DNA of 64,000 nt from Flavobacteriales bacterium. Lineage in GTDB: Bacteria > Bacteroidota > Bacteroidia > UBA10329. Location: the NCBI GenBank assembly GCA_021741075.1, contig JAIOYO010000002.1:28848-92847 (forward strand). The letters run 5' to 3'. A program made the position numbers and the translations under genes. This document shows, in pieces, positions 17,955 through 34,812 of the stretch. The notes below the pieces were generated by a model that did no database searches, had not been told where the DNA came from, and was given only the letters and a program-made list of their open reading frames with translations. The first letter of the stretch is position 1, and each line of letters starts with the position of its first letter.

Positions 17955-19171
17955 GGATGTTGCAGCTAGCATACGCAAACCTAAAGGAGCATTTCCTTTC
18001 TACCATTCTTAGCGTAATGCTATTGGGAATTGGCGTAGGAATGGTCTCATTTATCGTCACGGTTAGCGAGCAACTTAACGACCGTTTTAACCGCGACATC
18101 CGTGGTATAGACATGGTGGTGGGCGCCAAGGGCAGTCCGCTGCAGCTCATTCTTTCGGCAGTATATCAAATTGACAACCCTACGGGGAATATTCCGCTTG
18201 CAGAAGTGAACAAACTGAAACGAAACCCACTCATTAAATACAGCATTCCGCTTTCGTATGGCGATAGTTATCAGGGCTACCGCATTGTGGGTACAGACTC
18301 GCTTTATCTAAAGCATTATGGGGCCACTTTTTTTGAAGGAAATGTGTGGAACCGCAGCATGGATGTGGTTTTGGGAAGTGCCGTTGCCGAAAAACTTAAC
18401 CTAAAAATAGGCGCCCATTTTCATGGGAACCATGGGTTTGATGAAGAAGGTCACGCACATGATGATTCCCACTATAATGTGGTGGGAATTTTAAATGAAA
18501 CAGGAACAGTTGCGGATAGGCTTATTCTCACATCTACCGCAAGTGTTTGGGATATTCACAATCATCATGAAGATGAACATGACCACGACCACGCTAGTTG
18601 CGACCATGACCATGTAAAGGATGCGCCCTCAGAAATTACTGCGCTATTAGTAAAATTTAAAAGCCCCATGGGCATCATGCAAATACCTCGTATGGTGAAT
18701 GAAAAAACATCCATGCAGGCGGCAATTCCAGCCATCGAAATCAATAGGCTTTATTCCTTGATGGGTGTCGGATTTACTACCCTGCAAATCATTGGAATGG
18801 TGATTATGTGTATTGCCGCTTTAAGCGTTTTCATCTCCTTGCTCAACTCCTTAAAAGAACGGAAGTACGAGCTCGCACTCATGCGTTCGTTGGGCGCATC
18901 GCCCTTCAAACTTTTTGGACTTATCATTCAAGAAAGCTTGCTGCTTTGCTTAGCTGGTTACACGCTTGGCATCATCTTGGGAAGGGTTGGCATCATGCTA
19001 CTTTCATCCATCGGAGAAGACCAATTTCAATTTTCAGTATCGCAAAGCGGTGTTGCTGATGTAGAAATTTGGCTGCTGCCACTCACGCTCTGCATCGGAC
19101 TTGTTGCAGCACTCATTCCTGCCTTCCGTGCGTATCGTTCAGACATTTCAAGCGTTTTGAGAAATGAATAG
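17951..19171 (+). CDS. FtsX/MacB-type ABC permease with His-rich periplasmic insertion
   Basis: N-terminal TM, large periplasmic domain, three C-terminal TMs (FtsX topology). Contains HFHGNHGFDEEGHAHDDSH and HNHHEDEHDHDHASCDHDH tracts. Overlaps the upstream ATPase by 4 nt. Confidence 0.7.
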   Translation: MRMLQLAYANLKEHFLSTILSVMLLGIGVGMVSFIVTVSEQLNDRFNRDIRGIDMVVGAKGSPLQLILSAVYQIDNPTGNIPLAEVNKLKRNPLIKYSIPLSYGDSYQGYRIVGTDSLYLKHYGATFFEGNVWNRSMDVVLGSAVAEKLNLKIGAHFHGNHGFDEEGHAHDDSHYNVVGILNETGTVADRLILTSTASVWDIHNHHEDEHDHDHASCDHDHVKDAPSEITALLVKFKSPMGIMQIPRMVNEKTSMQAAIPAIEINRLYSLMGVGFTTLQIIGMVIMCIAALSVFISLLNSLKERKYELALMRSLGASPFKLFGLIIQESLLLCLAGYTLGIILGRVGIMLLSSIGEDQFQFSVSQSGVADVEIWLLPLTLCIGLVAALIPAFRAYRSDISSVLRNE

Positions 19172-19610
19172 ACTCATCCCTTTTCTCTTTATCTCTTTAT
19201 CCCTCTTTTCTTATTCAGAAGGAAAGGCGCAGCACAAAAAGGTTGATTGGCCGTTGCTTGCCAAAGTTGTTTGGGGCGAGAAATATTTCAAAGAGTATGA
19301 CGAAACGGTCTTTTATCCCGATTTCAGCAAGGAAGTATTGGCATTGGATAGCGCCCTGATAGAAATTCAAGGATATGTGATTCCTGTTGATGTAGAATCT
19401 GGTTATTACGTGCTTTCGGCCAATCCGTATGCCTCTTGTTTTTTCTGCGGAAACGCAGGGCCCGAAAGCGTGATGGAACTTCAATTTCCAAAGTCGATGA
19501 AATCGGTGTTTAAGATGGATGAAATAGTCACGTTTAAAGGACGACTGAAGCTAAATTGGGATGATTTAGAGCACTGTAATTACATCTTGAAAAACGCCAC
19601 GCCAAAATGA
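19164..19610 (+). CDS. small secreted protein with conserved CFFCGNAGPE motif (DUF3299-like?)
   Basis: 148 aa with signal peptide. Motif GYVIPVD...SANPYASCFFCGNAGPE. Tandem paralog of the next gene. Confidence 0.5.
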   Translation: MNRLIPFLFISLSLFSYSEGKAQHKKVDWPLLAKVVWGEKYFKEYDETVFYPDFSKEVLALDSALIEIQGYVIPVDVESGYYVLSANPYASCFFCGNAGPESVMELQFPKSMKSVFKMDEIVTFKGRLKLNWDDLEHCNYILKNATPK

Positions 19611-20050
19611 TGCGGCTACTCATCGTATTTCTACTAATGATTAGTTCCTCTGCCGGATTCGCTCAAACATTGGTGAGTTGGGACACATTTGCGCAGGTTA
19701 CTTTCTACCGGCAATACTCAGAAACATTTGGGTTTGAGGTAAACGTAAAACCACCCGAATTTGCGCCCAAATTATTGGCCTATCAAGGAAAAGAAATTTT
19801 GGTGAAAGGTTACGTTATTCCTGTGGATGTGGAGTTGGGTATGTACATGGTTTCGGCCAATGCGTTTGCCAATTGCTTTTTTTGCGGAAATGCGGGGCCA
19901 GAAACGGTTGTGGAGATTTTTCCTTCGAGCAAATTACCTCGTTTTAAGACGGATCAAATTGTCACGTTCAAGGGCATTCTTCAAATAAACAAGGAAGGAG
20001 AAATGAATGCCGTGCCTTATCAGCTATTTCAGGCCAAAGTGATTAACTAA
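19607..20050 (+). CDS. small secreted protein with conserved CFFCGNAGPE motif (paralog)
   Basis: 147 aa with signal peptide. GYVIPVD...SANAFANCFFCGNAGPE. 4-nt overlap with the previous paralog. Confidence 0.5.
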   Translation: MMRLLIVFLLMISSSAGFAQTLVSWDTFAQVTFYRQYSETFGFEVNVKPPEFAPKLLAYQGKEILVKGYVIPVDVELGMYMVSANAFANCFFCGNAGPETVVEIFPSSKLPRFKTDQIVTFKGILQINKEGEMNAVPYQLFQAKVIN

Positions 20051-20055
20051 GGTGC

Positions 20056-20499
20056 CTACTTCTCTTTCAGTGCTCCACTAAAAGTGTATTCTTCTTTAAT
20101 CTTACCTTTTTTAGAAACAGTAGCCTTCCCTTCTATTTGGTCAACCAGCACCTTTCCTTCCCACTTAAGCGACATTCCTTTCTGATTTCTGTTGATGGCT
20201 TGAAAGTGATATACCGCATCTTCCATAAGCTTTTCAACTTTAGAAATGGCGTACTCGCCCATTTGAAAACCTCCGCGGTCGGCACTTCGCATTTGAACGG
20301 TTGACATTTTATTGGTTCGAAAACTCAACTCTTCTTCAAACGGCTCTTCCTTTTTCTTCTTGTCGGAAACTTCCTCCATGGTAATCACAAAAACCTTTCG
20401 ATCAAGGAGTTTATCTTTTGGCCTTTTCTGTGCAAACGCACTTTGAACAAGAACTAGCAAGACAACAACCACAGACAATTTTCTTACAATCATGCTCAT
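20056..20499 (-). CDS. hypothetical secreted protein
   Basis: Signal peptide VVLLVLVQSAFAQ, followed by a Lys/Glu-rich sequence. Confidence 0.4.
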   Translation of the reverse strand: MSMIVRKLSVVVVLLVLVQSAFAQKRPKDKLLDRKVFVITMEEVSDKKKKEEPFEEELSFRTNKMSTVQMRSADRGGFQMGEYAISKVEKLMEDAVYHFQAINRNQKGMSLKWEGKVLVDQIEGKATVSKKGKIKEEYTFSGALKEK

Positions 20500-20942
20500 C
20501 CAAAGTTCCTTAAATACTCGATTTTGTCGTAAAGATTGGCTTTCAACTGACTGCCAGCTATTCTAAAATCTTGCATTTCGTCTGCCATATCCTTGTGCTT
20601 AAAAGGCAGCTCGCGGTCTTTCAGTAACACTCGGTCTTCAACTACGCGTTGAAGGTATTCTTCGTGCATTTTCAGTCTGTTCTTCTGGTTTTCAACCCGG
20701 TGCTCAACAAACGAAGTCAGTGTTTCTTTTAGTAACTGAATGTCCCTTTTTTCAACTGGATCAGACGCTTTTAAACCATAAATATCAACCATTCGCTGAT
20801 AGAACAAAAGGTCTATAACCAACGTGTTGAGTTCTGATTGCCATTCGCGGGTTTCGCTATGGTTGCGCTGCGCCTGTTTTCTATCGTTTACCTCTACCGA
20901 CATGAACCAAATATAGCTAGGATCAATGAAACTGAAATGCAA
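20496..20942 (-). CDS. hypothetical protein
   Basis: 148-aa ORF, 4-nt overlap with the downstream gene, helical and charged. No motif recognised. Confidence 0.35.
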   Translation of the reverse strand: MHFSFIDPSYIWFMSVEVNDRKQAQRNHSETREWQSELNTLVIDLLFYQRMVDIYGLKASDPVEKRDIQLLKETLTSFVEHRVENQKNRLKMHEEYLQRVVEDRVLLKDRELPFKHKDMADEMQDFRIAGSQLKANLYDKIEYLRNFG

Positions 20943-22092: not shown

Positions 22093-22968
22093 ATGACAAT
22101 CCAAAATCCTCAGGTTTTTACTGACAAGCAACTCCAACGCCATTTTGATGACTTCGGGTTTGTGCGAATTAATTTGCTCAATCTGGAGGAAACAGAGGAG
22201 CTGTTAAATTCTTATGAAGCACTTCCCCGCCCACGAGAATCTGGGTTTCACTGTACTATGTTTAGTCCAGATGCGGATTTGAAAACGTCAGTCGATTCCA
22301 TTATTAAAAACGCTTTGGTTGAAAAACTGAAACCACACTTTAAACAACACACTGCTCTGTATGGAAATTTTATGGTGAAAGAGCCAGGAGAAGAAAGCGA
22401 CTGGTTTGTGCACCAAGATTGGACCTATGTGGATGAAGCACAACATGTAAGTGTTGCCGTTTGGGTCCCACTAGTCGACCTCACCGAGAAAAACGGTGTT
22501 CTGTGTGTTGTTCCTGGTTCCCAAAAGATTCCAAATACGGTTAGAGGCCCAGGGGTGCATGATCCGTGGACAGATTTGCATCAAGTCATCAAAGAAGAAT
22601 ATCACGAAAAAGTTTTTCTAAAAGCAGGAGAAGCTATAGTGTGGCACCATCGTTTGGTTCACTTCTCGCCACCAAACATGTCTGATGAGCCCAGAATTGC
22701 AGCAACGCTTATCTGCACTCCAACCAATGTGCCGGTGTATCACTACTGGAAAGATCCATTGCAACAAGGAACTTTGGCCAGAAAATACCAGGTCGATTGC
22801 CGTTTTTTCATGAACTATGACATTGTGAATGAGCCAGCTAATGTGCCGTTTTCAGGACTGGTAGACAGCCACTTCCCAGATTTGGACCTGAACAGACTGA
22901 AGTCATTTTCCAATGAGCCTGTCGATGCTAGCTTTGTACACGGACCTCCACTGACAACCAATGCATAG
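22093..22968 (+). CDS. PhyH-family Fe(II)/2-oxoglutarate dioxygenase
   Basis: HQDWTYVDE (HxD facial triad) ... HHRLVHFSPPN distal His. Confidence 0.7.
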   Translation: MTIQNPQVFTDKQLQRHFDDFGFVRINLLNLEETEELLNSYEALPRPRESGFHCTMFSPDADLKTSVDSIIKNALVEKLKPHFKQHTALYGNFMVKEPGEESDWFVHQDWTYVDEAQHVSVAVWVPLVDLTEKNGVLCVVPGSQKIPNTVRGPGVHDPWTDLHQVIKEEYHEKVFLKAGEAIVWHHRLVHFSPPNMSDEPRIAATLICTPTNVPVYHYWKDPLQQGTLARKYQVDCRFFMNYDIVNEPANVPFSGLVDSHFPDLDLNRLKSFSNEPVDASFVHGPPLTTNA

Positions 22969-23812
22969 ACGGGTATTAAAAGATGCTGAGCTGCAAGCCA
23001 GATTCGATCAGGACGGATTTGTGGTCATTGATATGTTCTCAAATCAAGAATTCAACGAGTTGAAATCGATTCTGAGCCAGCTCAATGAGGAGAAGAAAGA
23101 CCTACAGTTCAATATCAATACCGATTACAAACTCAGTTTTTTCAGCACAGAACCTAATTATAGGAAACAGGTATTCAATTCGATTAGCGCGTTCTGCATG
23201 CCTGTTGTAAGTCGGTTTTTGGATGAATATGAACCGCTCATCGTGAACACGTTTGACAAGGAACCTGGCGAAGGAGAAGTACCCATTCATCAGAATTGGA
23301 CATTCGTTGATGAATCGAAGGCCACTTCCGTATCGGTTTGGATACCGATGATAGACACCACACGCGTCAACGGAACAATGGAGGTGGTGAAAGGCAGCCA
23401 TCGCGTTCTTTCAAGCTATCGTAGTCCCTCTATTCCGTGGGTGTTTGAAAACCTGCGGCATGAGATCAGAACCAAGTACATGGAACCGATTGATGCAAAG
23501 GTCGGTCAGGCCGTGATTCTGGATGATAGTATTCTGCATTACACCTCGCAAAATGATAGTGAAACCGTTCGGTCGGCCATTCAGCTGATTATGAAACCGA
23601 ACGATGTGCCTGCCATTCATTATCACATACCTTCCACCAGCTCTGTTGGTGTAGATGTATATGAGGTGGATTGGGAATTTTTCACACGGTTCAATATGAA
23701 TGAACCTCCTACAGGTGTGAAAAAGGTAGATGAATTGACCATCCACCAACATTTCCTTACCGAAGCTGAATTGGTTGATAGGATTGCACCATTGAAAGTC
23801 GCTGATCGCTGA
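22961..23812 (+). CDS. PhyH-family dioxygenase paralog with HxN variant of the iron motif
   Basis: IHQNWTFVDE aligns to the HxDW..VDE motif of its neighbours but carries Asn in place of Asp. Distal His in ILHYTSQN. Overlaps the upstream gene by 8 nt. Confidence 0.6.
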   Translation: MHRRVLKDAELQARFDQDGFVVIDMFSNQEFNELKSILSQLNEEKKDLQFNINTDYKLSFFSTEPNYRKQVFNSISAFCMPVVSRFLDEYEPLIVNTFDKEPGEGEVPIHQNWTFVDESKATSVSVWIPMIDTTRVNGTMEVVKGSHRVLSSYRSPSIPWVFENLRHEIRTKYMEPIDAKVGQAVILDDSILHYTSQNDSETVRSAIQLIMKPNDVPAIHYHIPSTSSVGVDVYEVDWEFFTRFNMNEPPTGVKKVDELTIHQHFLTEAELVDRIAPLKVADR

Positions 23813-23815
23813 CCT

Positions 23816-25384
23816 ATGCCAACATCCGGTTTAGCCAAATCCTTCATTGATTTGAAAACACTTGACGAGCGTGGTTTCACGTTGGTTTCCGCTCTTTCGC
23901 TAAAGGACATACTGAACCTGTTGATATTTTTCGATAAGCATCCTCATACTTCGAAGGGAGGCTCGTTTCATTCCACCATGGAACAGACAGAAGTTGACTA
24001 CAAGAAAATGGTTGACGAAAAGCTAAAGTCTGTTCTTAGTGACCAGATAGAACTGATGCTGCCGGGTCATGAGATCCTGTTCGGCAACTTTTTGGTGAAA
24101 GAGCCCGGGGCGAGCGGAAGTGTGGGTATTCACACCGATTGGTCGTATGTTGACGAATCCGTTCACACGTCATACAACCTCTGGATTCCTTTGACGGATG
24201 TGAATGAGCACAACGGATGTCTACATGTGTGGCCCGAAAGTCACAGGTTCACTCCACGTGTACGGACAACCCCCTATGTTCCGTTCAGCACTAAAGAGCA
24301 GCAAATGGTCCAGTTCAACTCTGTAGCGGTTCTATTATCTGCAGGACAGGGAGTGCTCTACCATAGCGGCCTTCTTCATTATTCCAACCCGAACAATACA
24401 CCAGATAATAGACCGGCCATTGCCTTGGTCATTGTTCCGAAGGGCGCACAACCGATGCATTACTATCGGCCAGAGCCGAACGGGTCAGAAGTGGAAGTCC
24501 ACAAGGTGGACCGCTCGTTTTTCCTTACGCACCTGCCTCAGTCCCGACCAACAGGAACCAAATTAGTGAAGACTGACGAAGTGCCGGTGTTCACATTAAG
24601 TACCGAAAGCGTACTGGAATCAGATGCTACGCAAACCAAGGTTTCTAACTACTATGACGAGTGGACCGGGGCTTACAGGGATATTTATGGAGATGTAATC
24701 CAAGCATTCCGTCCGAAAGATGAGACCGCTCTTCTCAACTATATCATGCACAGCGCTAGGATTGAAAACGGCCAAAGGATAGTCGATGCCGGTTGCGGCA
24801 TCTGCGGTCCTGCCATTTACTTCGCTCAGAACCGGGCGGTGCACATTGAGGCCATTACCCTATCGGGCGTGCAGACATCGATTGCAAACGAACGTATTTC
24901 TGCGGCCGGTCTACAAGAACTGATAACCTGCACTCAAGGCGATTTCCGGCTAATGGATTCTCTTGTAACCAGCGGAATGGATGGTGTCATCTTCTTAGAA
25001 TCGCTGGGGCATAGCACCAATGCACAAATGGCCATTCTGGCAGCCTACAGGGTGCTAAGGACGGGCGGCTTCATCTACATAAAGGACTTTTTTCCGCGAG
25101 AGTCGGCCAATCCAGAGATTCAACAGCGTATCGATAAAACAATAGACAACATCAATCGAGCATATAACTATGCCGTGCTCGACCTGAATAAGACATTGAG
25201 CCACCTTCGGAAAGCAGGGTTTGTAATAGATTTCATTCAAAGCCTGAACTTTGAAAGCGATACAGAAATTAGACGCAATTTTGAATCACAACACGGCATA
25301 TCGGTTTTCGAAGGAGGGGAGTTTATGCCAGCAGAGTGGCTCGAAATAAGGGCTGTTAAATATTTTGAGGAGGATGATAGATAA
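23816..25384 (+). CDS. fusion protein: PhyH-family dioxygenase (N) plus class I SAM-dependent methyltransferase (C)
   Basis: N-terminal half has GIHTDWSYVDE ... LLHYSNPN. C-terminal half has MTase motif I RIVDAGCGICGPAIYFA and post-I acidic/Rossmann pattern. Confidence 0.7.
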   Translation: MPTSGLAKSFIDLKTLDERGFTLVSALSLKDILNLLIFFDKHPHTSKGGSFHSTMEQTEVDYKKMVDEKLKSVLSDQIELMLPGHEILFGNFLVKEPGASGSVGIHTDWSYVDESVHTSYNLWIPLTDVNEHNGCLHVWPESHRFTPRVRTTPYVPFSTKEQQMVQFNSVAVLLSAGQGVLYHSGLLHYSNPNNTPDNRPAIALVIVPKGAQPMHYYRPEPNGSEVEVHKVDRSFFLTHLPQSRPTGTKLVKTDEVPVFTLSTESVLESDATQTKVSNYYDEWTGAYRDIYGDVIQAFRPKDETALLNYIMHSARIENGQRIVDAGCGICGPAIYFAQNRAVHIEAITLSGVQTSIANERISAAGLQELITCTQGDFRLMDSLVTSGMDGVIFLESLGHSTNAQMAILAAYRVLRTGGFIYIKDFFPRESANPEIQQRIDKTIDNINRAYNYAVLDLNKTLSHLRKAGFVIDFIQSLNFESDTEIRRNFESQHGISVFEGGEFMPAEWLEIRAVKYFEEDDR

Positions 25385-26210
25385 GATTGCTTTTGACAGA
25401 TTGGTGTTCACAGACCCAGAATTGAATTCACGCTTCAAATCTGAAGGATATGTGATTGTCAAAGGGTTCCTGTCTGAAAACGAGGTGGAACGCCTTGCAA
25501 CGTTCTATGAAGAACATCCTTCTGAGAGACGTACTGGTTTTCACACGACACTGCACGACAGCCGACCTGATTATCGCGAGTCGGTAACGAATGAGGTGAA
25601 TGACGTGTTCTACCCCAAAGCACAGAAATTACTGGTTGGATATGAACCTGTTTTTTCGTGTTTTACAGTAAAAGAACAGGATGCAGAAAGCGGTTTTGAC
25701 CTTCACCTTGACTGGAGCATGGTGGATGAAAAACAGTTCACTTCTGTCACCATCTGGTCTCCACTTACAGACATCACAGATACAAACGGTCTACTCTGGG
25801 TTCTTCCTGGAAGCCACCAATTCGAATATACCATCCGTGGAGGACCTGGATTGAGACTGTGGTGCGAAAAGCCTGCGCATGAGTGTTCTCAACGTTTTTC
25901 CATCCTTGAGCTGAAGTTGGCAAAAGGAGACGCCATCATCTACGACCATCGGTTATTTCATGGGTCGCCACCAAATCAAAGTAATCAGCGAAGGGTAGCA
26001 ATCAACTATTCAAGTATTCCTATAGCTGCTGAGTCCTTGCACTACCTGTTCAATGGAGATTCAGAAGTGCGAAGCCGATGTATCTCTCCTAATTACTATC
26101 ATCATCATATCCTTGACTATCTAGAAAATTGTGGTTTATACATAAACCGTAAAGAAATTGGAGGCAGCTTTCTTACCCAATCAGATGTGAACACATTAGT
26201 TAGAGACTAG
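25365..26210 (+). CDS. PhyH-family Fe(II)/2-oxoglutarate dioxygenase
   Basis: DLHLDWSMVDE ... RLFHGSPPN. Overlaps the upstream gene. Confidence 0.7.
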   Translation: MRRMIDKIAFDRLVFTDPELNSRFKSEGYVIVKGFLSENEVERLATFYEEHPSERRTGFHTTLHDSRPDYRESVTNEVNDVFYPKAQKLLVGYEPVFSCFTVKEQDAESGFDLHLDWSMVDEKQFTSVTIWSPLTDITDTNGLLWVLPGSHQFEYTIRGGPGLRLWCEKPAHECSQRFSILELKLAKGDAIIYDHRLFHGSPPNQSNQRRVAINYSSIPIAAESLHYLFNGDSEVRSRCISPNYYHHHILDYLENCGLYINRKEIGGSFLTQSDVNTLVRD

Positions 26211-26274
26211 ACAGCGGCACCGTGACGAATGGAAATATAGCAATGAATCTTATTATAAGTCTAAGGCACCAAAT

Positions 26275-27966
26275 ATGCGTGCAATAATGGATACAAGAAG
26301 CACTAAAAACACAACCTGGTTGCGCTTTTTCATTTCGCTATTGTCGGTTTGTTCGTTGACGTTGCTGGTTCGCCTAATAATGGATGGTTGGTTTTATCAG
26401 ACGCAAAGTGACACAGTTTTCCCAACGTACATTTTCGGTTTATATAATGGTGGGACAAACGCAATGCCAGACACTTTTGGCTGTTTTTCAGGCATTTCGC
26501 ATGGTCTAAACGCCTTGTATCATGCGGGATTTCGCAATATTTATGATCATCTCCAGGTTATCCTAGTGACCTTATGCATGGTTTATTGGGTGTTTGTGCT
26601 TTTGCCAAACAACTGGAACTCAAAAGGCCCGAACGCATTCATTTTGGTGCCAATATTCATTCATCTTAGTGATTTGGTGTTGCCTTTTGAGTTTTCAAAA
26701 ACGGCCATGATTGTGTCTTTGACTGGATTTCATATTAGCAGTAACCGCGATGGATTCTTGTCTGCAGTTTTTGGTACTCTACTTATTTCCATTGGTTTTT
26801 GTATCAGGCCTGAGCCAGTAGTTATTATGCTAATCATGGCTTTGGCGCTATTTCCCTTGCAAGCCAGTCTCAAGTTTGTCAAACAAGGTGGTCGCACTTT
26901 GCTTTTAGCTGTATTGGCGATAGTTGGGCTAAGTCAATATTTTCTGAACTCAGACCGAACACCTTCAAACACACATTACAAAGAAATTAGACCATATGAA
27001 TACGCCCTTGTAGATTTTAGGAAAAACGATTTAGAACTCACCGACTTTGAACCTTCGGATCAAGCTAAGATAATAGCCGCTCAGAGCTTCTTTTTTGCGG
27101 ACAAAGAACAATTGAATGTGGCTTATTTTAAATCGATTGGAATTGCTCCGATAGACAAGAGTCCCGTTTCACTTGTTAAGTCATTTTTTAGGCCAAATTG
27201 GATTGCAGATGGATTGAAAAATTTTTGGAGGCGCACGTCTTCCATTAAATTTCATTTTTTCACCTTTTTGCTCTTGGTTCTAATTTTTTGGAATCAGCAC
27301 CGTCAGATTTCAATTTACCTACTATTAATCACAGCCCTCATTGTTGTTGTAAGCGTATTTCTGAAAACTGAGCATCACTTCATTACGACCATTATGATGG
27401 CAGCATTGCTACTAATTGGCACAAACGAAAATGTTGGAAACTCCGCCAACTACTCCCAAGGCAAGTTTTGGGCTCTTTGCCTCTTTTCTTTAGTATTAGC
27501 TGGATTTGCCTTAGCAGAAAAAAAAACAATCACCCAGTCCTCTAGCCAAAAACACAATTACTACGCGCATGTAGCCAACGAAGTAGAACATCTGAATCCA
27601 AATTCCTTGGTTTTGAACATTTCGTTTTGGGACAACCTTCATTACAAACTTTATGCTCCTATTCAACCATTACAACATGAAAGTATGTCGGTTCTTGACG
27701 GAGGCATTTTGTATTTAAACCAGGAGTATCAAGAAATAATACAAATAAAATCTGGAGAAAGTGAGTTCATTCTTCAATTTATGAACTTCGCCATAACCAA
27801 GCAAAAGATTTTCGTTTCATCTCAGAAAAGAATGGATTTAATCATTGATTATTTAAATACTGTACACGGTACTTCGCTTAGGTGTAGCCAGATTAAAACT
27901 TTCAAACTTGAGGATCAACAAACAGCTTGCGAAGAAATCGGACTATTTATGATTAAAGAAGTTTAG
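26275..27966 (+). CDS. integral membrane protein (N-terminal polytopic domain plus C-terminal soluble domain)
   Basis: 563 aa; about 10 TM helices in the first ~420 aa, then a hydrophilic C-terminus. No known motif. Confidence 0.45.
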   Translation: MRAIMDTRSTKNTTWLRFFISLLSVCSLTLLVRLIMDGWFYQTQSDTVFPTYIFGLYNGGTNAMPDTFGCFSGISHGLNALYHAGFRNIYDHLQVILVTLCMVYWVFVLLPNNWNSKGPNAFILVPIFIHLSDLVLPFEFSKTAMIVSLTGFHISSNRDGFLSAVFGTLLISIGFCIRPEPVVIMLIMALALFPLQASLKFVKQGGRTLLLAVLAIVGLSQYFLNSDRTPSNTHYKEIRPYEYALVDFRKNDLELTDFEPSDQAKIIAAQSFFFADKEQLNVAYFKSIGIAPIDKSPVSLVKSFFRPNWIADGLKNFWRRTSSIKFHFFTFLLLVLIFWNQHRQISIYLLLITALIVVVSVFLKTEHHFITTIMMAALLLIGTNENVGNSANYSQGKFWALCLFSLVLAGFALAEKKTITQSSSQKHNYYAHVANEVEHLNPNSLVLNISFWDNLHYKLYAPIQPLQHESMSVLDGGILYLNQEYQEIIQIKSGESEFILQFMNFAITKQKIFVSSQKRMDLIIDYLNTVHGTSLRCSQIKTFKLEDQQTACEEIGLFMIKEV

Positions 27967-28172
27967 TAGTGCACAAACTCATATGTGTTGATGATGCGCT
28001 TCGGCTGATTATTCCCGACATTCGTAACCGAGGATTTTTCTTATTCTGAGGTTTCCTGATTGGAACACAAAGTCTGCATTGTACAAACAAAATAAGAAAA
28101 GAAACAGCGTAATCAACCCTTGATTCATTGGATGCTATTAACGCCATTCGACTAAAACTTCTAGGTTAGCTA

Positions 28173-29036
28173 ATGAAACAAATGGCAAATGACATGTTAG
28201 ACTCGCTTAGTGTTGAAGACAAAAGCGTAACATACATTTCGGCCGCTCCTGAGAACCTACTGAAGTACGTGCAGCGAGCATGGCACATGAGGAGGTTCGT
28301 AATCACTCTTGCTAAAAGAGAAATTAAGGTTCGGCACGCCAACACGTACTTTGGTCTTTTATGGGTGCTGCTTCAGCCACTGCCTTCAATAATCGTTTTC
28401 ACCTTTTTTTTCGACCGAATTATTCAGGTGGATACAGGGGACGTTCCGTATTCCATTTTTGCGCTTATTGGACTAATTGGCTGGAATTATTTTACCTATT
28501 TATCGGTCTCGTTAGGCAACGTTTTATATGAGTCATCAGATTTAATAAAGAAGATCTATTTCCCTCGAATACTATTGCTTTTATCTCGCGTTCTGTCTGG
28601 TGCTTTGGAGTTCTCAATCTCACTTGTGTTGCTTATTTCAGCAATGTTGATTTTCGGAACTTATCCAGATTCATCATTTTTTTACTTCCCTTTCTTTATT
28701 GTGCTGAATATTCTATTTGGTTTGAGCATTGGCGTATGGCTCTGTATTCTTACCTACAAACGAAAGGACCTAATGCATGTAATTCCGATAATTATAAATT
28801 TTAGCATTTGGCTCACACCTGTTTTTTTTCCGACAACAGTTTTACCAAGCCATCTCGCTGACGTAATGTATATTAACCCAATGACCCTCATTTGCGAAGG
28901 TTATCGATTTGCGCTAGTAGGAGGTCCAGCTCCAGATTTAACCCACTTTGGGTCTGTTCCAGTTATGGTTGTTTTGTTATTATTAGGTTTAAATCAATTT
29001 CGAAAAATTGATTCTCGCATAGCTGAGCATTTATAG
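28173..29036 (+). CDS. ABC-2 type exporter permease (Wzm/TagG/KpsM-like)
   Basis: N-terminal RRFVITLAKREIKVRHANTYFGLLW matches the ABC-2 permease signature, with six TM helices. Confidence 0.7.
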   Translation: MKQMANDMLDSLSVEDKSVTYISAAPENLLKYVQRAWHMRRFVITLAKREIKVRHANTYFGLLWVLLQPLPSIIVFTFFFDRIIQVDTGDVPYSIFALIGLIGWNYFTYLSVSLGNVLYESSDLIKKIYFPRILLLLSRVLSGALEFSISLVLLISAMLIFGTYPDSSFFYFPFFIVLNILFGLSIGVWLCILTYKRKDLMHVIPIIINFSIWLTPVFFPTTVLPSHLADVMYINPMTLICEGYRFALVGGPAPDLTHFGSVPVMVVLLLLGLNQFRKIDSRIAEHL

Positions 29037-29098
29037 TTGATTCATATCATTTTTCACAGAGGCGTATTGGATAGCTTTGATTTAGTAAATTAAAATGA

Positions 29099-30736
29099 AT
29101 GAAACTCGTTACAATTAAAAATATAGAACTGGCCGAAAGCCTTCGAGAAAAAGGATACGGAACAATAAACGGAGTCCTGAAGCCTAAAGACATTAACGAG
29201 CTTTCGTCATTTTTCTATGACCAACTTGAATTTTGTGGAGTTGATACTCCATTCTTCACAACCCATTGGAGCAGTTCTGAAGAGTATCGCAGAAAGGTGG
29301 ACGCAACCGTAAGGCGAGTAGTAGTACCGGCAATTGATAATTGGTTTGGCGACTACAAATGTCTTTTGGGTTATTACCTTTTAAAAAGACCCTCTACTAA
29401 TGGAGTGGTCACTCCACATAGAGATTGGTCGTTAACGGATGAGTCAAAATCAGCAGGATTGATTCTATGGATTCCGCTAACCAACATTAGTGCAGAAAAT
29501 GGCGGATTGGAGGTTGTGCAAAACAGCCACAATAACGCACCGCTTCGAGGAACAAACATTCATCCAGAAGTTCCAACGGAAATAAGTAGGAAAAAACTGT
29601 ATCCAGCAGCAGGTGATGCAATTGTTATGGACAATCGATTACTGCATTGTTCCGAACCCAATTCAAGCATGCATGAAAGGCTGGTAGTAGGTCTCATATT
29701 GCTTCCTAAAGATGCCGAGGTGCTCCATTCGTATCGGAAAGAGGGGGAGCGAGAAACACGAACTGTAAAAACTGGAGACGATTTTCTATTACGCTATCAT
29801 TTCAATCATGATAACCCAACAGATTGTGCGCACCTTGAGCATTATTCGACCAATTCAACAGAAAACTCTCTTTTTGGAAAAGGGAAAGGAAAAAACCAAG
29901 TTTTCCGAGATATTGCCCTAAATAAGACGTTTGAAAAATACGGTTACGTTGTCCTGAAACGGTTCTTGGACGAAGAAACTATTCTACGACTTCGCCAAGT
30001 CTATGAAGAAAACATCGATGTCGTCACCGATAAAGCATTCTATATCAGCCAGTGGAGCAATAAACAAGACAAGAAAGAACGTATAAACAAGGCGGTTCAG
30101 TCGGCTCTCGTTGCGCGTGCTCAGAATTACCTAAATGGGTATGAGCCCGTGTTCGCAGTGTTTGGGGTAAAACACCCTCAGCAAGACAGTGAAATGTACC
30201 TTCACCAAGACTGGGCACATGTGGACGAAACTTATTACCGAACCGTGAATGTTTGGTGCCCATTACTTGACATATCGAAAGACCGCGGTCCAGTACACGT
30301 GATTAACGGAAGTCATCGGCTATTTGACACATGGAGGGGCGTGGATATCCCCGATTCATTCCAGGAAATTGGCGTGGATGAACTCAAAAAGTATCTTACC
30401 GATATTCTGATGGAAGCTGGAGACGTGATAATGTGGGATCATCGCATCATACATGGTTCGGGAGTTAACCATTCTGATGTAACACGCGTTGCTGCCATCG
30501 TTAATATGAAACCAACTGCGGCCAAATTCTACTTATTTTATGCTGACTCAATCGAAAACCCTAAAAAAATTGAGGTTTTTGAACCGTCAGAAGACTTTTT
30601 CGTTAGCAATGACTCAGCAAACGAACCTGGTCTGGTGAAAGAAAAAGCCATTTTCATTCATCAGTTTCCGTATTGTAAGCCGCAGGTAACGGAGGCGGTT
30701 TTGCAACGCTTTATGCTTGATGAATTTCCTAATTAA
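29099..30736 (+). CDS. tandem double PhyH-family dioxygenase (two Fe/2OG domains in one polypeptide)
   Basis: Domain 1: TPHRDWSLTDE ... RLLHCSEPN. Domain 2: LHQDWAHVDE ... RIIHGSGVN. Confidence 0.7.
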   Translation: MKLVTIKNIELAESLREKGYGTINGVLKPKDINELSSFFYDQLEFCGVDTPFFTTHWSSSEEYRRKVDATVRRVVVPAIDNWFGDYKCLLGYYLLKRPSTNGVVTPHRDWSLTDESKSAGLILWIPLTNISAENGGLEVVQNSHNNAPLRGTNIHPEVPTEISRKKLYPAAGDAIVMDNRLLHCSEPNSSMHERLVVGLILLPKDAEVLHSYRKEGERETRTVKTGDDFLLRYHFNHDNPTDCAHLEHYSTNSTENSLFGKGKGKNQVFRDIALNKTFEKYGYVVLKRFLDEETILRLRQVYEENIDVVTDKAFYISQWSNKQDKKERINKAVQSALVARAQNYLNGYEPVFAVFGVKHPQQDSEMYLHQDWAHVDETYYRTVNVWCPLLDISKDRGPVHVINGSHRLFDTWRGVDIPDSFQEIGVDELKKYLTDILMEAGDVIMWDHRIIHGSGVNHSDVTRVAAIVNMKPTAAKFYLFYADSIENPKKIEVFEPSEDFFVSNDSANEPGLVKEKAIFIHQFPYCKPQVTEAVLQRFMLDEFPN

Positions 30737-30745
30737 CATGTTTAA

Positions 30746-32092
30746 AAAACCACGTTCATCGAAACTGTAATTAAGACTATAAGTAGTAAAGAACCCGTTC
30801 TGCGTGTAAGTGGGATAAGTAAATCATTTAAGGGTTCTGCTCAATTCAGAATAGCCCACGAAAAGGGCCCAGTACTAACTGATATCTCATTTCAACTCGT
30901 TAAAGGTGATGTTCTTGGACTCGTTGGAAACAACGGGGCAGGTAAAAGCACACTTCTTAAAATAATTTCAGGACTAATCGCCCCAGATGCAGGAAGTGTA
31001 AGTTACAAGGGTAAGTTACTATCCATTTTAGATATTGGATCGGGTTTTCATCTTGATTTGACAGGGAGAGAAAACGTATTTATGGCGGGTCAATTATTTG
31101 GCCTTCAAAAAGAAGAAATAGCCACTAAGCTTGAAGAGATTGTGAAATTCAGCGGTCAAGGAGCACACATGGATACTCCGGTAAAGCATTATTCAAGCGG
31201 AATGTTTTTGCGTTTAGCATTCTCCGTGGCAACGACATTTCCGTCAGATATTCTTCTGTTAGATGAAGTAATGAGCGTTGGAGACATGAAATTTCAGGAG
31301 GAATCTGTCGACCGCATCAGGCAGATAACAAGTAGCGGAACCACGGTAATATTTGCTAGTCACGAACTTCCAGCGATACTAATGTTGTGTAATAAAGTTA
31401 TGCTTCTAGAAAATGGTATGATTAGTCGGTTTGGCGCTCCAAATAAAATAATTGAAGAATACTTAGAAAAAGAAGCGTTTAGTGAGCTACTGGGCAATGA
31501 AACTATTGCTGAAGGTGAAGCGATGTCAGCTCGCGGCCCGCAAAACCCAGAAAAAACCAACGATTTTGAGCCGACCGTTGATATTGAAGCCTCTATTTCG
31601 AACACAATAAGCGAATTAGAGAATCTAGAATCAACTAACCTGAACTTTGATGTGACGGTACACGATGCGTTTGTCTATGCTGATCAAAAAGAGAGGACGG
31701 ATACGATTTCTGCAGATGACAAAGTCTGTTTGTATATTGACTTTTCAAAAGACTGGGAAGGTCCAATCATATTATCAGCCGTTTTTACAGATAAGTTTAG
31801 AAACAACCTCATGAGTTTCTGTAACTATCGACCACTTAGGAAGGAGGAACATGTAGAAACTTCTCTGCCAGGAAGGTACGCTCTTCGACTTCGGCTTCCT
31901 GAAGGTTTTCTTAACGCTGGCCTTTTTCGTGTAAACCTATATTTCGCTAATGCACAGCAGATTACAACACTTGCTCTGGAGGATTATCTTTCCTTCCGAA
32001 TATCTCCCAGCGGCTATCGCCTCAAAGAATATCATAATATTGGAAACTATACTGGGCCTCTTTATCCACTCGGAGAATGGTCGCGCGCTTAA
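30746..32092 (+). CDS. ABC transporter ATP-binding protein, Wzt/TagH-like with C-terminal substrate-binding extension (start unresolved; possible frameshift)
   Basis: Walker A GNNGAGKST at about 30930, Q-loop, signature YSSGMFLRLAF, Walker B LLLDEVMSVGD, plus a C-terminal domain of about 170 aa. The frame is open from 30746 but has no ATG before the Walker A; an ATG at 30738 is in another frame, across an A6 run. Confidence 0.6.
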   Translation, partial: KTTFIETVIKTISSKEPVLRVSGISKSFKGSAQFRIAHEKGPVLTDISFQLVKGDVLGLVGNNGAGKSTLLKIISGLIAPDAGSVSYKGKLLSILDIGSGFHLDLTGRENVFMAGQLFGLQKEEIATKLEEIVKFSGQGAHMDTPVKHYSSGMFLRLAFSVATTFPSDILLLDEVMSVGDMKFQEESVDRIRQITSSGTTVIFASHELPAILMLCNKVMLLENGMISRFGAPNKIIEEYLEKEAFSELLGNETIAEGEAMSARGPQNPEKTNDFEPTVDIEASISNTISELENLESTNLNFDVTVHDAFVYADQKERTDTISADDKVCLYIDFSKDWEGPIILSAVFTDKFRNNLMSFCNYRPLRKEEHVETSLPGRYALRLRLPEGFLNAGLFRVNLYFANAQQITTLALEDYLSFRISPSGYRLKEYHNIGNYTGPLYPLGEWSRA

Positions 32093-32126: not shown

Positions 32127-32873
32127 TTGCAACAAGCCCCAACAGTTTCTGTTATTATTCCCCTCTACAAGAGCAAGCAGCTTTTCAAAAACATCATCAA
32201 CTTGACCCAAGAACTATTTCCCCTGCTTGGGTCAAAATCAGAACTTTTACTCATTAACGATGGAGATTCCGACCTTTTTGACCTCACTGTATTCGATGCG
32301 TTCACAACTATTAGCCGGTCTGTAACTTTACTGAGCCTTAGAAAAAATTTTGGTCAAATGACCGCCACTCTTTGCGGAATGAGCTTGGCAAAGAGCCCTA
32401 TTATACTGACAATAGATGCTGATTTTTACTGTGATTCAAACGTACTGAAAGAGTTAGTGATTAAGGCACAGGCTTCAAAGCACATCGCGTACATAGATTT
32501 ACAAGAACCAAACAACAACTTACCCATTCATCGAAAGGTTCTGAGTTGGATAAACAGAAAGGCCTTTACCCTCCTTGTTCACAATCCAGAATTGCATGCT
32601 TATACTGGGTCTTCAATTAGAGCAATTGAGCAATCATTGGTTGAAAGACTTATTCAAGAACACCGCAGTTCTGAATTAATGGATGTATGGTTGTTAAATA
32701 ATGCATTGAAGGTGTCGTTTATTCCCGTTAGCCAAAAAGGTGAGTCTAGTTCTTCTTATTCAATCACCTCCTTGATATCTTTCACATTTAGATTCATCCA
32801 TGGTTTGTTCAAGAAAAACAGCCGTTTCAAGGCTACTGACTATATTTATCAAATAGAAAAATTAAGCGGTTGA
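32127..32873 (+). CDS. GT2 family glycosyltransferase
   Basis: VSVIIPLYKS ... INDGDSD ... TIDADF (DXD). Confidence 0.6.
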   Translation: MQQAPTVSVIIPLYKSKQLFKNIINLTQELFPLLGSKSELLLINDGDSDLFDLTVFDAFTTISRSVTLLSLRKNFGQMTATLCGMSLAKSPIILTIDADFYCDSNVLKELVIKAQASKHIAYIDLQEPNNNLPIHRKVLSWINRKAFTLLVHNPELHAYTGSSIRAIEQSLVERLIQEHRSSELMDVWLLNNALKVSFIPVSQKGESSSSYSITSLISFTFRFIHGLFKKNSRFKATDYIYQIEKLSG

Positions 32874-34288
32874 CCGAAAAAAAAGGCCTTTCTGTTCTTA
32901 AAACAAAGTCTAGTGATGTTGAGGTTGTTTTCATAAACCCACGAGACTTGGTTGCTTGTGTGCCATATGTAAAGTTAGCCTCACTTGCAGGAACCCTTCG
33001 TGGTAACGGAATCCGCTCCCTTATTATAGAGCCAACGGCTACGAGGCTAAGTACAGCCGATGTGGTTCAACGTATCATTGATATTGATCCTAAAATCGTA
33101 TGTATTGGAGCATTCCCTTCCACTCTTCCTGATGCTTACAAACTAACATGTGAGCTAAAAAAGGAGGTGCCAAATACTACGTTGATACTGGAAGGCTACC
33201 ATGTAAATGCCGACCCTTCGATTCTAGTGGAAATGGATATTGAATGGGGTCTTCGAGGAGATGCTGAGTTGGCATTTGTCAATCTCTGTAAACACATATT
33301 ATCTGGTGAATCGTTTGATAATTCCATTCCAGGACTTGTACATTACATTGGGGGTATACTTAAAGACAATGGGCCAGCAACAATCAAGGATCTTGATTCA
33401 CTGCCCCTGCCCGCTTACGATTTGTTGTCTGTAGAGCGCTACTATTCTGCAAGCACCAACAAGCGATATATGCAGCTGTTCACCACACGTGGCTGTCCGT
33501 ACAATTGTAATTTCTGCGCTAACCCAACACAAATGAGTTTTCGCTATTTGAGCAACGAAAGAGTGCTGCAACACCTTAACGTACTCGTAAAAGACTGCCG
33601 TGTAGAATGGGTGGAATTTATGGATCTAACGTTTACAGTAAATCGCAAACGCACACTGTCTATGTGTCAAGCAATTATTGACTTTGGTGTTCATTTTGAC
33701 TGGGGATGTGAGACCCGAGCAGACTTGATAGATGAAGAATTGTTGTTAAAAATGAAGGACGCGGGTTGCAAAAAAATCACTTTCGGTGTTGAGTCTGGCG
33801 CGGAGCATGTTCGTTTTAGAACGGGAAAGAAAATTACCAATCAGCAGTGCATAGAAGCTTTCGATTTATGTCGAAAGCACGGAGTAAAAACAATGGCCAA
33901 TTTCATTTTCGGCCATCCCAACGAGACAGAATCTGAAATGTGGGAGACCGTACGCTTTGCAGCAAAACTAAAACCGTTCAACGTCATGTTTACGCGAATG
34001 GTGCCTATGCCAGATGTGGAGGTTTATAAATTGGGTATAAAAGAAAAACAATTCGGTTCTGATGTTTGGGTACGGTACATGAAGGGCGAAATAGAACATC
34101 CCACCTATATCCCTAACACCATTGACAAGTCTTTGATGAATAAGATGTACCAATTAGCTTACCTGCGGTACTATCTTTCTTTAAGAGTTATGCGAAGCTA
34201 CCTACCTCTGCTAATTGAACCTAAATTTTTTGTGCAATCAATTATCGTTTTTGGTCGAATGGCCTTCGGAAAACCTGTATTTAAATGA
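32870..34288 (+). CDS. B12-binding domain radical SAM protein (class B rSAM, probable methyltransferase)
   Basis: N-terminal Rossmann-like B12-binding region, then TTRGCPYNCNFCANP (Cx3Cx2C). Confidence 0.65.
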   Translation: MTEKKGLSVLKTKSSDVEVVFINPRDLVACVPYVKLASLAGTLRGNGIRSLIIEPTATRLSTADVVQRIIDIDPKIVCIGAFPSTLPDAYKLTCELKKEVPNTTLILEGYHVNADPSILVEMDIEWGLRGDAELAFVNLCKHILSGESFDNSIPGLVHYIGGILKDNGPATIKDLDSLPLPAYDLLSVERYYSASTNKRYMQLFTTRGCPYNCNFCANPTQMSFRYLSNERVLQHLNVLVKDCRVEWVEFMDLTFTVNRKRTLSMCQAIIDFGVHFDWGCETRADLIDEELLLKMKDAGCKKITFGVESGAEHVRFRTGKKITNQQCIEAFDLCRKHGVKTMANFIFGHPNETESEMWETVRFAAKLKPFNVMFTRMVPMPDVEVYKLGIKEKQFGSDVWVRYMKGEIEHPTYIPNTIDKSLMNKMYQLAYLRYYLSLRVMRSYLPLLIEPKFFVQSIIVFGRMAFGKPVFK

Positions 34289-34812
34289 ACCTACGAAAAA
34301 TCTTTACCTCGTTTTTTAAGTCAGAAAATATTCCGGTTAATTCGATTCACAACTTATCGATTAAAACCCTCGAAGGAGAGCCTTTTTCCTTAAGCCAATT
34401 CAAGGGCAAAAAGCTGCTAATTGTAAATGTGGCTTCTGCATGTGGTCTCACTCCACAGTACGAGCAACTGCAACAGCTTTACGTCAAGTACCATGGCAAA
34501 CTGGAAATTCTAGGTATTCCTTGCAACGATTTTGCTGGGCAAGAACCCGGAACGCCAGAACAGATACTTGAATTCTGTAAAATCAATTATGATGTCTCTT
34601 TTCTGCTAACAGAAAAAGTGAACATTAAAACCGAGCCTATTCATCCGCTATATACTTTTCTTACCAGAAAGGAGAATAATGGGCTTCAAGACTCAGAAGT
34701 AGATTGGAATTTTCAGAAGTATTTGCTTAATGAGCAAGGTGTGTTAATTCAAGTTTTATCACCAGCAACAGAGCCTCTTTCGTCCGAGTTGTGTGCTGCC
34801 ATAGATGCGTAG
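34285..34812 (+). CDS. glutathione peroxidase family protein (Cys-type)
   Basis: LLIVNVASACGLTPQY ... ILGIPCNDFAGQEPG is the classic GPx/BtuE signature, with Cys rather than Sec. Confidence 0.8.
   Translation: MNLRKIFTSFFKSENIPVNSIHNLSIKTLEGEPFSLSQFKGKKLLIVNVASACGLTPQYEQLQQLYVKYHGKLEILGIPCNDFAGQEPGTPEQILEFCKINYDVSFLLTEKVNIKTEPIHPLYTFLTRKENNGLQDSEVDWNFQKYLLNEQGVLIQVLSPATEPLSSELCAAIDA

Follow-up and report, generated by a model that had tools for sequence, protein, structure and literature searches.

What does a bacterium oxidise with six paralogous oxygenase domains encoded almost side by side, and why are genes of a polysaccharide exporter placed among them? This question is raised by a 64,000-nt stretch of DNA from a Flavobacteriales bacterium (GCA_021741075.1, contig JAIOYO010000002.1, positions 28,848-92,847, forward strand), hereafter the window, which at its positions 22093-30736 encodes six domains of the PhyH family (PF05721) of oxygenases that depend on Fe(II) as well as on 2-oxoglutarate (2OG) in five same-strand genes (1+1+1+1+2). 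Genes for a Wzm-type permease, for a Wzt-type ATPase bearing a carbohydrate-binding domain (CBD) and for a membrane glycosyltransferase of the GT-C fold are interleaved with these PhyH genes; a family 2 glycosyltransferase (GT2) gene and two B12-binding radical S-adenosylmethionine (SAM) genes then follow. On balance, we consider it probable that the PhyH array tailors a polyprenyl-linked glycan in the cytoplasm before its export by Wzm/Wzt.

The diversity of surface polysaccharides is usually ascribed to the pathways that supply sugar nucleotides, to glycosyltransferases and to plain decoration with acyl or methyl groups. A recurring module in which 3-10 Fe/2OG domains and a fused, putative O-methyltransferase are encoded between wzm and wzt points to O2-dependent oxidative tailoring of envelope glycans, for which the only characterised precedents are LpxO and KdoO, acting on lipid A and 3-deoxy-D-manno-octulosonate (Kdo).

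The genes and domains of the core region are the following (window coordinates).

22093..22968, + strand: PhyH-type Fe(II)/2OG oxygenase, domain 1; 291 aa; PF05721 78.7 bits, 1e-21; HQDWTYVDE ... HFSPPN ... R
22961..23812, + strand: PhyH-type domain 2, the H-Q-N variant; 283 aa; PF05721 59.2 bits, 8.9e-16
23816..24601, + strand: PhyH-type domain 3, the N-terminal half of a 522-aa fusion protein; PF05721 1.7e-18, residues 57-200; HTDWSYVDE ... HYSNPN ... R
24602..25384, + strand: C-terminal half of the same 522-aa protein, a class I SAM-dependent methyltransferase; matches to CMAS, Methyltransf_11 and Methyltransf_25
25365..26210, + strand: PhyH-type domain 4; PF05721 83.7 bits, 2.9e-23; HLDWSMVDE ... 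HGSPPN ... R
26275..27966, + strand: GT-C fold membrane glycosyltransferase; 563 aa, multi-pass; no Pfam or NCBIfam match
28173..29036, + strand: Wzm-type ABC-2 permease; PF01061 8e-17; NCBIfam KpsM and Wzm matches
29099..30736, + strand: tandem PhyH-PhyH protein; 545 aa; PF05721 129.1 bits, 3.7e-37, in two stretches
~29099-29872, + strand: domain 5a of the tandem protein; HRDWSLTDE; full H/D/H/R set; limits by hmmsearch
~29885-30733, + strand: domain 5b of the tandem protein; HQDWAHVDE; full H/D/H/R set; limits by hmmsearch
30738..32092, + strand: Wzt-type ATP-binding cassette (ABC) ATPase with a C-terminal CBD; ABC_tran 1.2e-18; frame broken near the start
32127..32873, + strand: polyprenyl-phosphate-type (ArnC/GtrB-like) glycosyltransferase of family GT2; 248 aa; PF00535

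The first four PhyH genes overlap or abut one another (8-nt overlap, 3-nt gap and ~11-20-nt overlap), a close packing that looks as in a translationally coupled operon. The protein of domain 4 has 281 aa when read from the TTG at 25365, and the ATG at 25374 is the likelier start. Inside the PhyH interval lie two non-PhyH genes, those for the GT-C protein (26275-27966) and for Wzm (28173-29036); the former product is 100% identical to NCBI K9G41_00870 from a Flavobacteriales metagenome-assembled genome (MAG). A scan for sigma-70 promoters and terminators returned promoter-like sites below shuffle expectation, with a consensus that is ill-suited to Bacteroidota.

Family assignment and metal-site residues

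All five proteins score 59-129 bits against PF05721 in the Pfam hmmscan, above its gathering cutoff of 22 bits (68.1 bits for the fusion encoded at 23816-25384). A hidden Markov model (HMM) made from the six domains detected no seventh PhyH copy among the window open reading frames (ORFs) of at least 150 aa. Both the proximal and the distal His, as well as an Arg at +11 after the latter, are kept in all six domains and form invariant columns in a 47-domain alignment. This Arg corresponds in position to Arg275 of human PhyH, which binds the C5-carboxylate of 2OG. The canonical HxD...H...R set is found in five of the six domains (1, 3, 4, 5a and 5b), domain 2 being the exception. The 47-sequence profile matched MysH (2.5e-21), SnoK (1e-20), PHYHD1 (2.5e-20), PhyH (3e-18) and EvdO2 (6.6e-17), followed at lower scores by SnoN (5e-14), 4xaa (8e-13), 6ec3 (2.6e-12, through its C-terminal part) and KanJ (~2e-5); PtlH and GriE were also among the matches. 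The fold was checked for domain 3: the AlphaFold2 model of the fusion protein has a beta-rich N-terminal half, with MysH (9c9n) as the best oxygenase match in Foldseek (E 3.7e-14); as modelled, domain 3 has the double-stranded beta-helix fold. The six domains are all assigned to the PhyH/Fe(II)-2OG oxygenase family, and turnover is predicted.

A first-pass annotation of this DNA, made from the sequence alone, had described six paralogous PhyH-type domains in four genes. The domain count is confirmed by hmmscan, which places all six in PF05721 above the gathering score, and the gene count has to be raised to five. Pairwise alignment, which that annotation had named as a check, bears out the paralogy at 21-32% identity, and the six domains can be classed as old paralogues. 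The proximal pattern it had given, H-x-D-W-(S/T)-x-V-D-E, is not uniform and fails in domain 2 (HQNWTFVDE), domain 5a (HRDWSLTDE) and domain 5b (HQDWAHVDE); the distal H-x-S-x-x-N is shifted to H-Y-T-S-Q-N in domain 2.

An Fe/2OG halogenase function was considered separately and rejected: H-x-A/G occurs in none of the six domains, HG is seen in one of 250 family domains, and the NCBIfam chlorinating-enzyme model gives ~22 bits against a cutoff of 226.

Recurrence of the module

Counting the window, ten loci were found with 3-10 PhyH domains each; nine are thus additional to the window, and the count includes the partial locus L012. The scan of genome contigs gave four loci, so that the taxonomic spread comes mainly from metagenome contigs. 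Gene contents of the more distant loci are as follows.

L002: five PhyH domains and a stand-alone methyltransferase, then Wzt, a PMT_2-like GT-C protein and GT2; a sixth PhyH domain lies ~6 kb downstream on the opposite strand
L007: 10 PhyH domains, including a PhyH-methyltransferase fusion and a tandem protein; Wzm, Wzt, GT1, acyltransferase; three GDP-mannose-dehydratase/epimerase-like genes
L008: Wzm, PhyH, methyltransferase-PhyH-PhyH, PhyH, Wzt; NodU-like carbamoyltransferase, two B12-radical SAM proteins, GT2
L009: 8 PhyH domains, two Wzm genes, Wzt, UbiA, TylC3-like sugar C-methyltransferase, dehydratase
L010: 7 PhyH domains, Wzm, Wzt, a 572-aa unannotated protein, a B12-radical SAM protein
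L011, the minimal form: wzm, wzt, HxN-PhyH, methyltransferase, PhyH, PhyH; a ManC-like gene upstream and a 786-aa GT4/GT1 protein encoded two genes after the PhyH block
L012: seven PhyH domains, two methyltransferases, UbiA; the contig ends nearby, with no transporter visible

L005/L006, on an independent metagenome contig, is syntenic with the window over the whole block, with ~54-72% protein identity that includes the PhyH domains. Domain 1 has orthologues at 74% identity in L001 and 61% in L005, and orthologues of the tandem PhyH-PhyH protein are present in L005 and L007. Because of the L005/L006 synteny and the analogous arrays in L002 and L007-L012, the arrangement can be placed far beyond chance. 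The named sources are mainly Bacteroidota (Flavobacteriales, Chitinophagales, Crocinitomicaceae, Bacteroidia), and one partial match is in an Acidimicrobiia MAG (L004). Comparison of gene content thus identifies one and the same uncharacterised module recurring in other, mainly Bacteroidota, genomes. Genes of UbiA-family prenyltransferases adjoin the PhyH arrays in L009 (4417-5514) and L012 (6533-7513).

An H-x-N variant at the centre of the module

Domain 2 has Asn in place of the carboxylate of the metal-binding triad (HQN) and retains the distal His and the Arg at +11. The same departure is seen throughout its relatives: H-[QE]-N-W is present in all 120 homologues at 34-92% identity, with the Asn invariant, and these 120 sequences keep the distal His without exception and the Arg at +11 in all cases except one (119/120). 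Such conservation identifies the Asn as a selected feature rather than a product of decay. The HxN protein defines the only PhyH orthogroup present in every locus, with reciprocal-best matches at 38-92% identity, and the other window PhyH domains show 26-41% identity outside the two close relatives. A sole universal orthologue among weakly conserved paralogues is what one would expect if a conserved core were accompanied by variable, serotype-like tailoring. The HxN gene lies directly upstream of the methyltransferase-bearing gene in nine of the ten loci, that is, in all except L012.

Among the 250 domains of the top representatives of the family, 192 have the H/D/H/R set, 50 have H/N/H/R and one further domain has H/N/H without an aligned Arg. 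In at least 14 proteins among these representatives, H/N domains are fused to H/D domains, which suggests an obligate heteromeric pairing. The HxN site may be a neutral-ligand metal site, or the protein may act as a 2OG- and metal-binding partner subunit. A literature search for this triad found no characterised H-x-N 2OG oxygenase, which is not proof of absence. For 2OG-oxygenase enzymology the conserved site matters in either case, whether it turns out to be a variant with a neutral ligand or to mark a pseudoenzyme partner.

The methyltransferase fusion and other multidomain proteins

The second half of the 522-aa fusion (aa ~263-522) carries the motif I sequence VDAGCGICGPA, which aligns with LDVGCGIGKPA of RebM and LDVGCGVGKPA of AtmM, and none of 36 fusion homologues departs from D324, G326 or G328. 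Its best PDB matches in phmmer are RebM (3bus, 8.4e-15), AtmM (6uv6, 4.4e-13) and MitM (7.6e-13). The AlphaFold2 model of the fusion, built with 36 homologues, has a pLDDT of 92.3 and a pTM of 0.88, and Foldseek matches its methyltransferase half to MitM, AtmM, TleD, SpnF and RebM at E ~1e-17 with a TMt of ~0.72. The C-terminal half can accordingly be classed by motif and fold as an intact class I SAM methyltransferase of the RebM/AtmM/MitM clade. Its nearest solved relatives include the sugar O-methyltransferases RebM and AtmM, and also the N-methyltransferase MitM, the C-methyltransferases TleD and GPPMT and the cyclase SpnF.

Homologues with PhyH and methyltransferase fused make up at least 36 clusters, with identities of 34-93%. 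The reverse order, methyltransferase-PhyH-PhyH, is found in an 851-aa protein of L008 (P0016), and in L002 and L011 the two activities are encoded by separate neighbouring genes. Fusions of PhyH and methyltransferase in both orders, together with those of HxN and HxD domains, indicate that these proteins work together. An exhaustive HMMER search returned a PhyH subfamily of 2,635 clusters at 50% identity. Among the best 142 newly returned representatives (P0182-P0323), 97 are multidomain proteins, of which 86 have two and 11 have three PhyH domains; such multidomain proteins reach ~1,260 aa.

The first-pass annotation had read the gene at 23816..25384 as a PhyH domain fused to a C-terminal class I SAM methyltransferase and that at 29099..30736 as a tandem dioxygenase. 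Pfam, the RebM alignment and the fold agree with the former, and PF05721 matches the latter in two stretches; the PhyH assignment holds throughout, and the SAM-binding motifs are intact on alignment. Its description of both as novel fusions is not sustained, given the at least 36 PhyH-methyltransferase clusters and the 97 of 142 representatives with two or three PhyH domains. For the PhyH-methyltransferase fusion, precedent also exists among solved structures, in the methyltransferase-oxygenase fusion 6ec3, which we take to be EvdMO1.

Proposed glycan tailoring before export

The transporter points to a glycan substrate. A profile of six locus Wzt proteins matches the Aquifex aeolicus Wzt structures 8dku/7k2t at 2e-88 over residues 33-374, reaching the CBD, and the window Wzt gives a weak Pfam Wzt_C match that is near full-length (positions 7-132 of 143). 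In the related loci, all eight Wzt proteins have 405-485 aa, a length that marks them as CBD-bearing. In the systems characterised so far, transporters with a CBD-type Wzt export only chains capped at the non-reducing end, for example with 3-O-methyl-mannose or 3-O-methyl-rhamnose (PMC9445017). No WbdD-like protein was seen at the loci, where the only conserved methyltransferase is the PhyH-fused or PhyH-adjacent one. Since no methyltransferase apart from the PhyH-linked one is a constant companion of the transporter, the trio of HxN-PhyH, PhyH and methyltransferase could, by analogy with these systems, make the terminal export-licensing modification; we hold this part less firmly than the tailoring role as such.

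The five PhyH-gene proteins are soluble and have no signal peptides, and as they also need 2OG, a cytoplasmic site of action is indicated. The six PhyH domains and the RebM-like, putative O-methyltransferase domain would act there on a polyprenyl-linked saccharide, which Wzm/Wzt would then carry over the inner membrane. The conserved trio would make the cap recognised by the Wzt CBD, and the variable paralogues (domains 1, 4, 5a and 5b in the window) would oxidise C-H bonds of the chain in a strain-specific manner, with hydroxylation, ketone formation, epimerisation and oxidative cyclisation as candidate reactions. After export, the GT-C enzyme, fed by GT2, would add a further sugar in the periplasm. 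The best NCBIfam match of GT2 is the undecaprenyl-phosphate Ara4FN transferase (2e-16, below its cutoff), and a GT2 gene follows wzt directly or within a few genes in L005, L002 and L008; it is the probable donor-maker for the GT-C enzyme. The families, catalytic residues, gene context and conservation are read directly from the loci, and the glycan substrate, capping role and reaction types are what the proposal adds to them.

Several points weigh against this proposal. To our knowledge, no enzyme of this PhyH subfamily has a known substrate, and we know of no 2OG oxygenase that acts on an O-antigen or capsule polymer. A literature search for PhyH proteins in O-antigen/ABC-transporter loci returned only annotations in Xanthomonas lipopolysaccharide (LPS) cassettes and LpxO-type lipid A hydroxylases, with no functional study. 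One cap alone leaves the presence of 3-10 oxygenase domains at each locus unexplained, and domain 2 may be non-catalytic owing to the Asn at its metal site. The wzt gene is apparently frameshifted in this assembly: its frame (from 30746) has no ATG, GTG or TTG before 31058, and the ATG at 30738 is off by one base. The break lies at an A6 run (30744-30749), where one extra A would restore MFKKTTFIETVIK (frame translation); it may reflect an indel in the assembly, a gene that has become a pseudogene, or a homopolymer subject to phase variation. Furthermore, the only glycosyltransferases of the window operon are the 248-aa GT2 and the GT-C-type proteins, with no obvious chain-polymerising glycosyltransferase and no initiating phosphoglycosyltransferase in that operon, and several related loci also have few glycosyltransferases. 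Finally, the operon runs on into lipid-type genes (OlsC/LpxO-like hydroxylase, acyl-AMP ligase, KAS III), which makes a lipid or glycolipid target possible.

The scarcity of glycosyltransferases, and the pairing of GT2 or UbiA with a GT-C enzyme, would be readily explained if the locus encoded an Arn- or decaprenyl-phospho-arabinose-like pathway to a lipid-linked monosaccharide donor. GT2 or UbiA would make a polyprenyl-phosphate sugar, the PhyH, methyltransferase and B12-radical SAM enzymes would extensively remodel this one sugar in the cytoplasm, Wzm/Wzt would flip it, and a GT-C enzyme would transfer it to LPS, another glycan or protein. UbiA homologues stand beside the PhyH arrays of L009 and L012, and decaprenyl-phospho-ribose is the product of a UbiA-type enzyme, its oxidation and reduction taking place while it is still bound to the lipid. 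In L002 wzt is directly followed by a GT-C gene, and in L009 and L010 a protein of equal size encoded at that place is a candidate GT-C enzyme; in the window and L005 the GT-C gene or its syntenic counterpart belongs to the module, and the window, L005 and L002 each have a small GT2 gene downstream of wzt. Neither polymerising glycosyltransferases nor initiating transferases were found in the window operon. However, the Wzt CBD has its homologue in the O-antigen exporter of A. aeolicus and known CBDs read the polymer end, L011 and L007 hold genes for large GT4/GT1 enzymes and for GDP-sugars of the kind usual in polymer synthesis, and the known flippases for polyprenyl-phosphate monosaccharides are small GtrA/ArnEF-type proteins. 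We therefore regard a donor pathway as unlikely, though as the likeliest of the alternatives to glycan tailoring.

The genes that follow GT2 bear on the nature of the substrate in another way.

32870-34288, + strand: first B12-binding radical SAM gene (Pfam)
34285-34812, + strand: glutathione peroxidase gene, between the two B12-radical SAM genes
34910-36412, + strand: second B12-binding radical SAM gene (Pfam)
36409-37209, + strand: OlsC/LpxO-like Asp_Arg_Hydrox protein; OlsC model 3.9e-21, below its cutoff
from 37187, within 36409-38836: second GT-C candidate, a 549-aa membrane protein with a weak Dpy19 match

Genes for an acyl-AMP ligase, the ketoacyl synthase KAS III and a PseH-like GNAT protein lie further downstream on the same strand. 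The B12-radical SAM proteins have only sub-threshold NCBIfam matches (BchE, HpnJ, AprD4), and such genes adjoin the module also in L005, L008 and L010. The glutathione peroxidase gene is found between the B12-radical SAM genes in L005 likewise; its product may shield enzymes sensitive to O2 that are made together with oxygenases requiring it. The OlsC/LpxO-like protein is a seventh 2OG-type oxygenase in the operon. BLASTP between the membrane proteins at 26275 and 37187 gave no match, and paralogy between the two was not detected.

With its AMP-binding, KAS III, GNAT and OlsC/LpxO-like genes on the same strand, this downstream region recalls the picture drawn in the first-pass annotation, in which one scaffold is iteratively hydroxylated and the new hydroxyl is capped by the methyltransferase. 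As a small-molecule or lipid natural product, the scaffold would be a non-carbohydrate, for example fatty-acyl, amino-lipid or polyketide-like, started by the acyl-AMP ligase and KAS III, and its export would be DrrAB/NodIJ-like. Many PhyH relatives do act on natural products, MysH, SnoK, PtlH and GriE being among the matches, and the methyltransferase clade also holds MitM, TleD and SpnF. The lipid-type genes, however, lie outside the recurring module and none was seen in the stretches fetched for L007-L011, the recurring partners being Wzm, a CBD-type Wzt, GT-C, GT2 and sugar-nucleotide genes instead; core genes for PKS, NRPS or terpene pathways are absent. A small-molecule or lipid product is therefore improbable in our view, and the one scaffold of the first-pass annotation is most likely a polyprenyl-linked glycan. 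The coupling of hydroxylation to methyl capping that it suggested is a conjecture; a sugar can be O-methylated without first gaining a hydroxyl. What stands of that interpretation is the PhyH family and the intact fused methyltransferase; the novelty of the fusions does not, and the transporter and glycan context and the H-x-N site had been missed.

Two B12-radical SAM proteins, several 2OG oxygenases, an Asp_Arg_Hydrox protein and a SAM methyltransferase also resemble the tailoring set of polytheonamide, and might suggest a proteusin-like cluster for a ribosomally synthesised and post-translationally modified peptide (RiPP) with ABC export of the modified peptide. A precursor gene would be sought in the 207-bp gap at 27966-28173, which shares no small ORF with its L005 counterpart, the 32-aa ORF of the latter having no equivalent in the window. 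No leader-peptide, protease or RiPP-recognition gene is present, the transporter is of the Wzm/Wzt polysaccharide type, and the four ~147-aa ORFs upstream of the array, which have signal peptides, travel with a MacB-type pump. Peptide maturation is thus highly improbable, and tailoring of a polyprenyl-linked glycan remains the preferred reading.

Wider implications

The enzyme families and the export pathway are already known; what had been uncharacterised are PhyH arrays as the variable content of Wzm/Wzt loci, the universal H-x-N member and the Rosetta-stone links to a putative O-methyltransferase. A trio that did make the export cap would constitute a new type of terminator for O-polysaccharides. 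As the subfamily of 2,635 clusters is wholly unannotated, a single biochemical characterisation would propagate widely. A bolder idea, speculative and in our judgement doubtful, is that some Bacteroidota edit a simple lipid-linked polysaccharide after polymerisation through Fe/2OG arrays instead of employing many glycosyltransferases. C-H oxidation would give keto sugars, residues would be epimerised by radical chemistry, or an O-methyl group would be oxidatively closed into a methylene acetal or an orthoester after the manner of the orthosomycins; the product would be the cap read by the Wzt CBD, and the HxN protein would be either a new 2OG-binding metal centre or a non-catalytic director of the canonical domains.

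Other genes of the window

Upstream of the array, four ORFs of ~147 aa lie at 19164-20942; the two on the + strand have signal peptides and the motif CFFCGNAGPE in common, and the other two are on the - strand. The three that were scanned gave no convincing Pfam match (E ~0.1). They adjoin the MacB-type ABC pump (17091-19171), an arrangement conserved in L005. FG-GAP/ASPIC-UnbV repeat proteins of 798 and 1103 aa (14593-16989 and 42263-45574) bracket the wider glycan-locus region. At the far end of the window, three radical SAM genes are adjacent (59698-61122, + strand; 61116-62741, - strand; 62717-63916, - strand) and carry, according to Pfam, the SPASM/twitch domain at the N-terminus and not at the C-terminus; that at 59698-61122 matches the NCBIfam model N_Twi_rSAM at 1.4e-43. 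These N-terminal-twitch genes adjoin DegT, GT2 and Gly_transf_sug genes, with which they may form a second glycan-related cluster at 50-59 kb.

Comparison with known systems

Human PhyH and PHYHD1 and bacterial MysH share with the window domains the Pfam family, the double-stranded beta-helix fold, the H-x-D...H residues and the Arg after the distal His. Their substrates differ from the one proposed here, being acyl-CoA and a mycosporine-like amino acid, and the identity to MysH is 17% in Foldseek.

Oxidation of sugar C-H bonds by PhyH-family enzymes is known from SnoK and SnoN of nogalamycin biosynthesis and from KanJ, which catalyse C-C cyclisation, epimerisation and oxidative deamination to a ketone, respectively. 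Among solved PhyH-family enzymes, hydroxylation is a further precedent for sugar chemistry. SnoK, SnoN and KanJ are single-domain enzymes for small glycosylated antibiotics, with no link to ABC polysaccharide export. Conversely, LpxO, OlsC and KdoO are O2- and 2OG-dependent modifiers of envelope glycolipids, and an OlsC/LpxO-like gene is part of the window operon; they belong, however, to other 2OG subfamilies (Asp_Arg_Hydrox and Kdo_hydroxy), and each works as a single enzyme, on the acyl chains of lipid A, on ornithine lipid or on Kdo, rather than in an array between wzm and wzt.

The orthosomycin enzymes EvdO1, EvdO2, AviO1 and HygX are PhyH-like Fe/2OG oxygenases that act on assembled oligosaccharides, with several paralogues per cluster and, as in the window, one oxygenase fused to a SAM methyltransferase (EvdMO1). 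The methyltransferase is N-terminal in EvdMO1 and C-terminal in the window fusion, and HygX has its own non-canonical triad, H-x-G...E-x3-H, where the window variant is H-x-N...H. We know of no orthoester or methylene-acetal product in any bacterial polysaccharide. HygX, EvdO1/2 and EvdMO1 catalyse oxidative cyclisation to orthoesters and probably to methylenedioxy bridges, for which O-methylation followed by oxidative cyclisation has been proposed (PMC13374393). In the profile search EvdO2 (6.6e-17) ranks below MysH, SnoK, PHYHD1 and PhyH, and as MysH, SnoK and PHYHD1 outscore all orthosomycin enzymes, no specific orthology is indicated. Furthermore, the orthosomycin systems are actinomycete antibiotic pathways, whereas the window holds a cell-envelope locus.

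The closest parallel to the proposed capping is found in the E. coli O8/O9a system, where WbdD terminates the chain. In known systems of this type, caps are O-methyl or methyl-phosphate groups (PMC9445017). The window and the related loci lack the kinase domain and the coiled-coil molecular ruler of WbdD, and their methyltransferase, with its putative capping role, is of the RebM/MitM clade and fused or adjacent to 2OG oxygenases. Nevertheless, the methyltransferase-bearing gene of L011 lies beside wzm/wzt in the same relative position as wbdD, in a gene order that we take to parallel the wzm-wzt-wbdD-wbdA order of E. coli O8/O9a, and the CBD of the locus Wzt is homologous to that of A. aeolicus WzmWzt.

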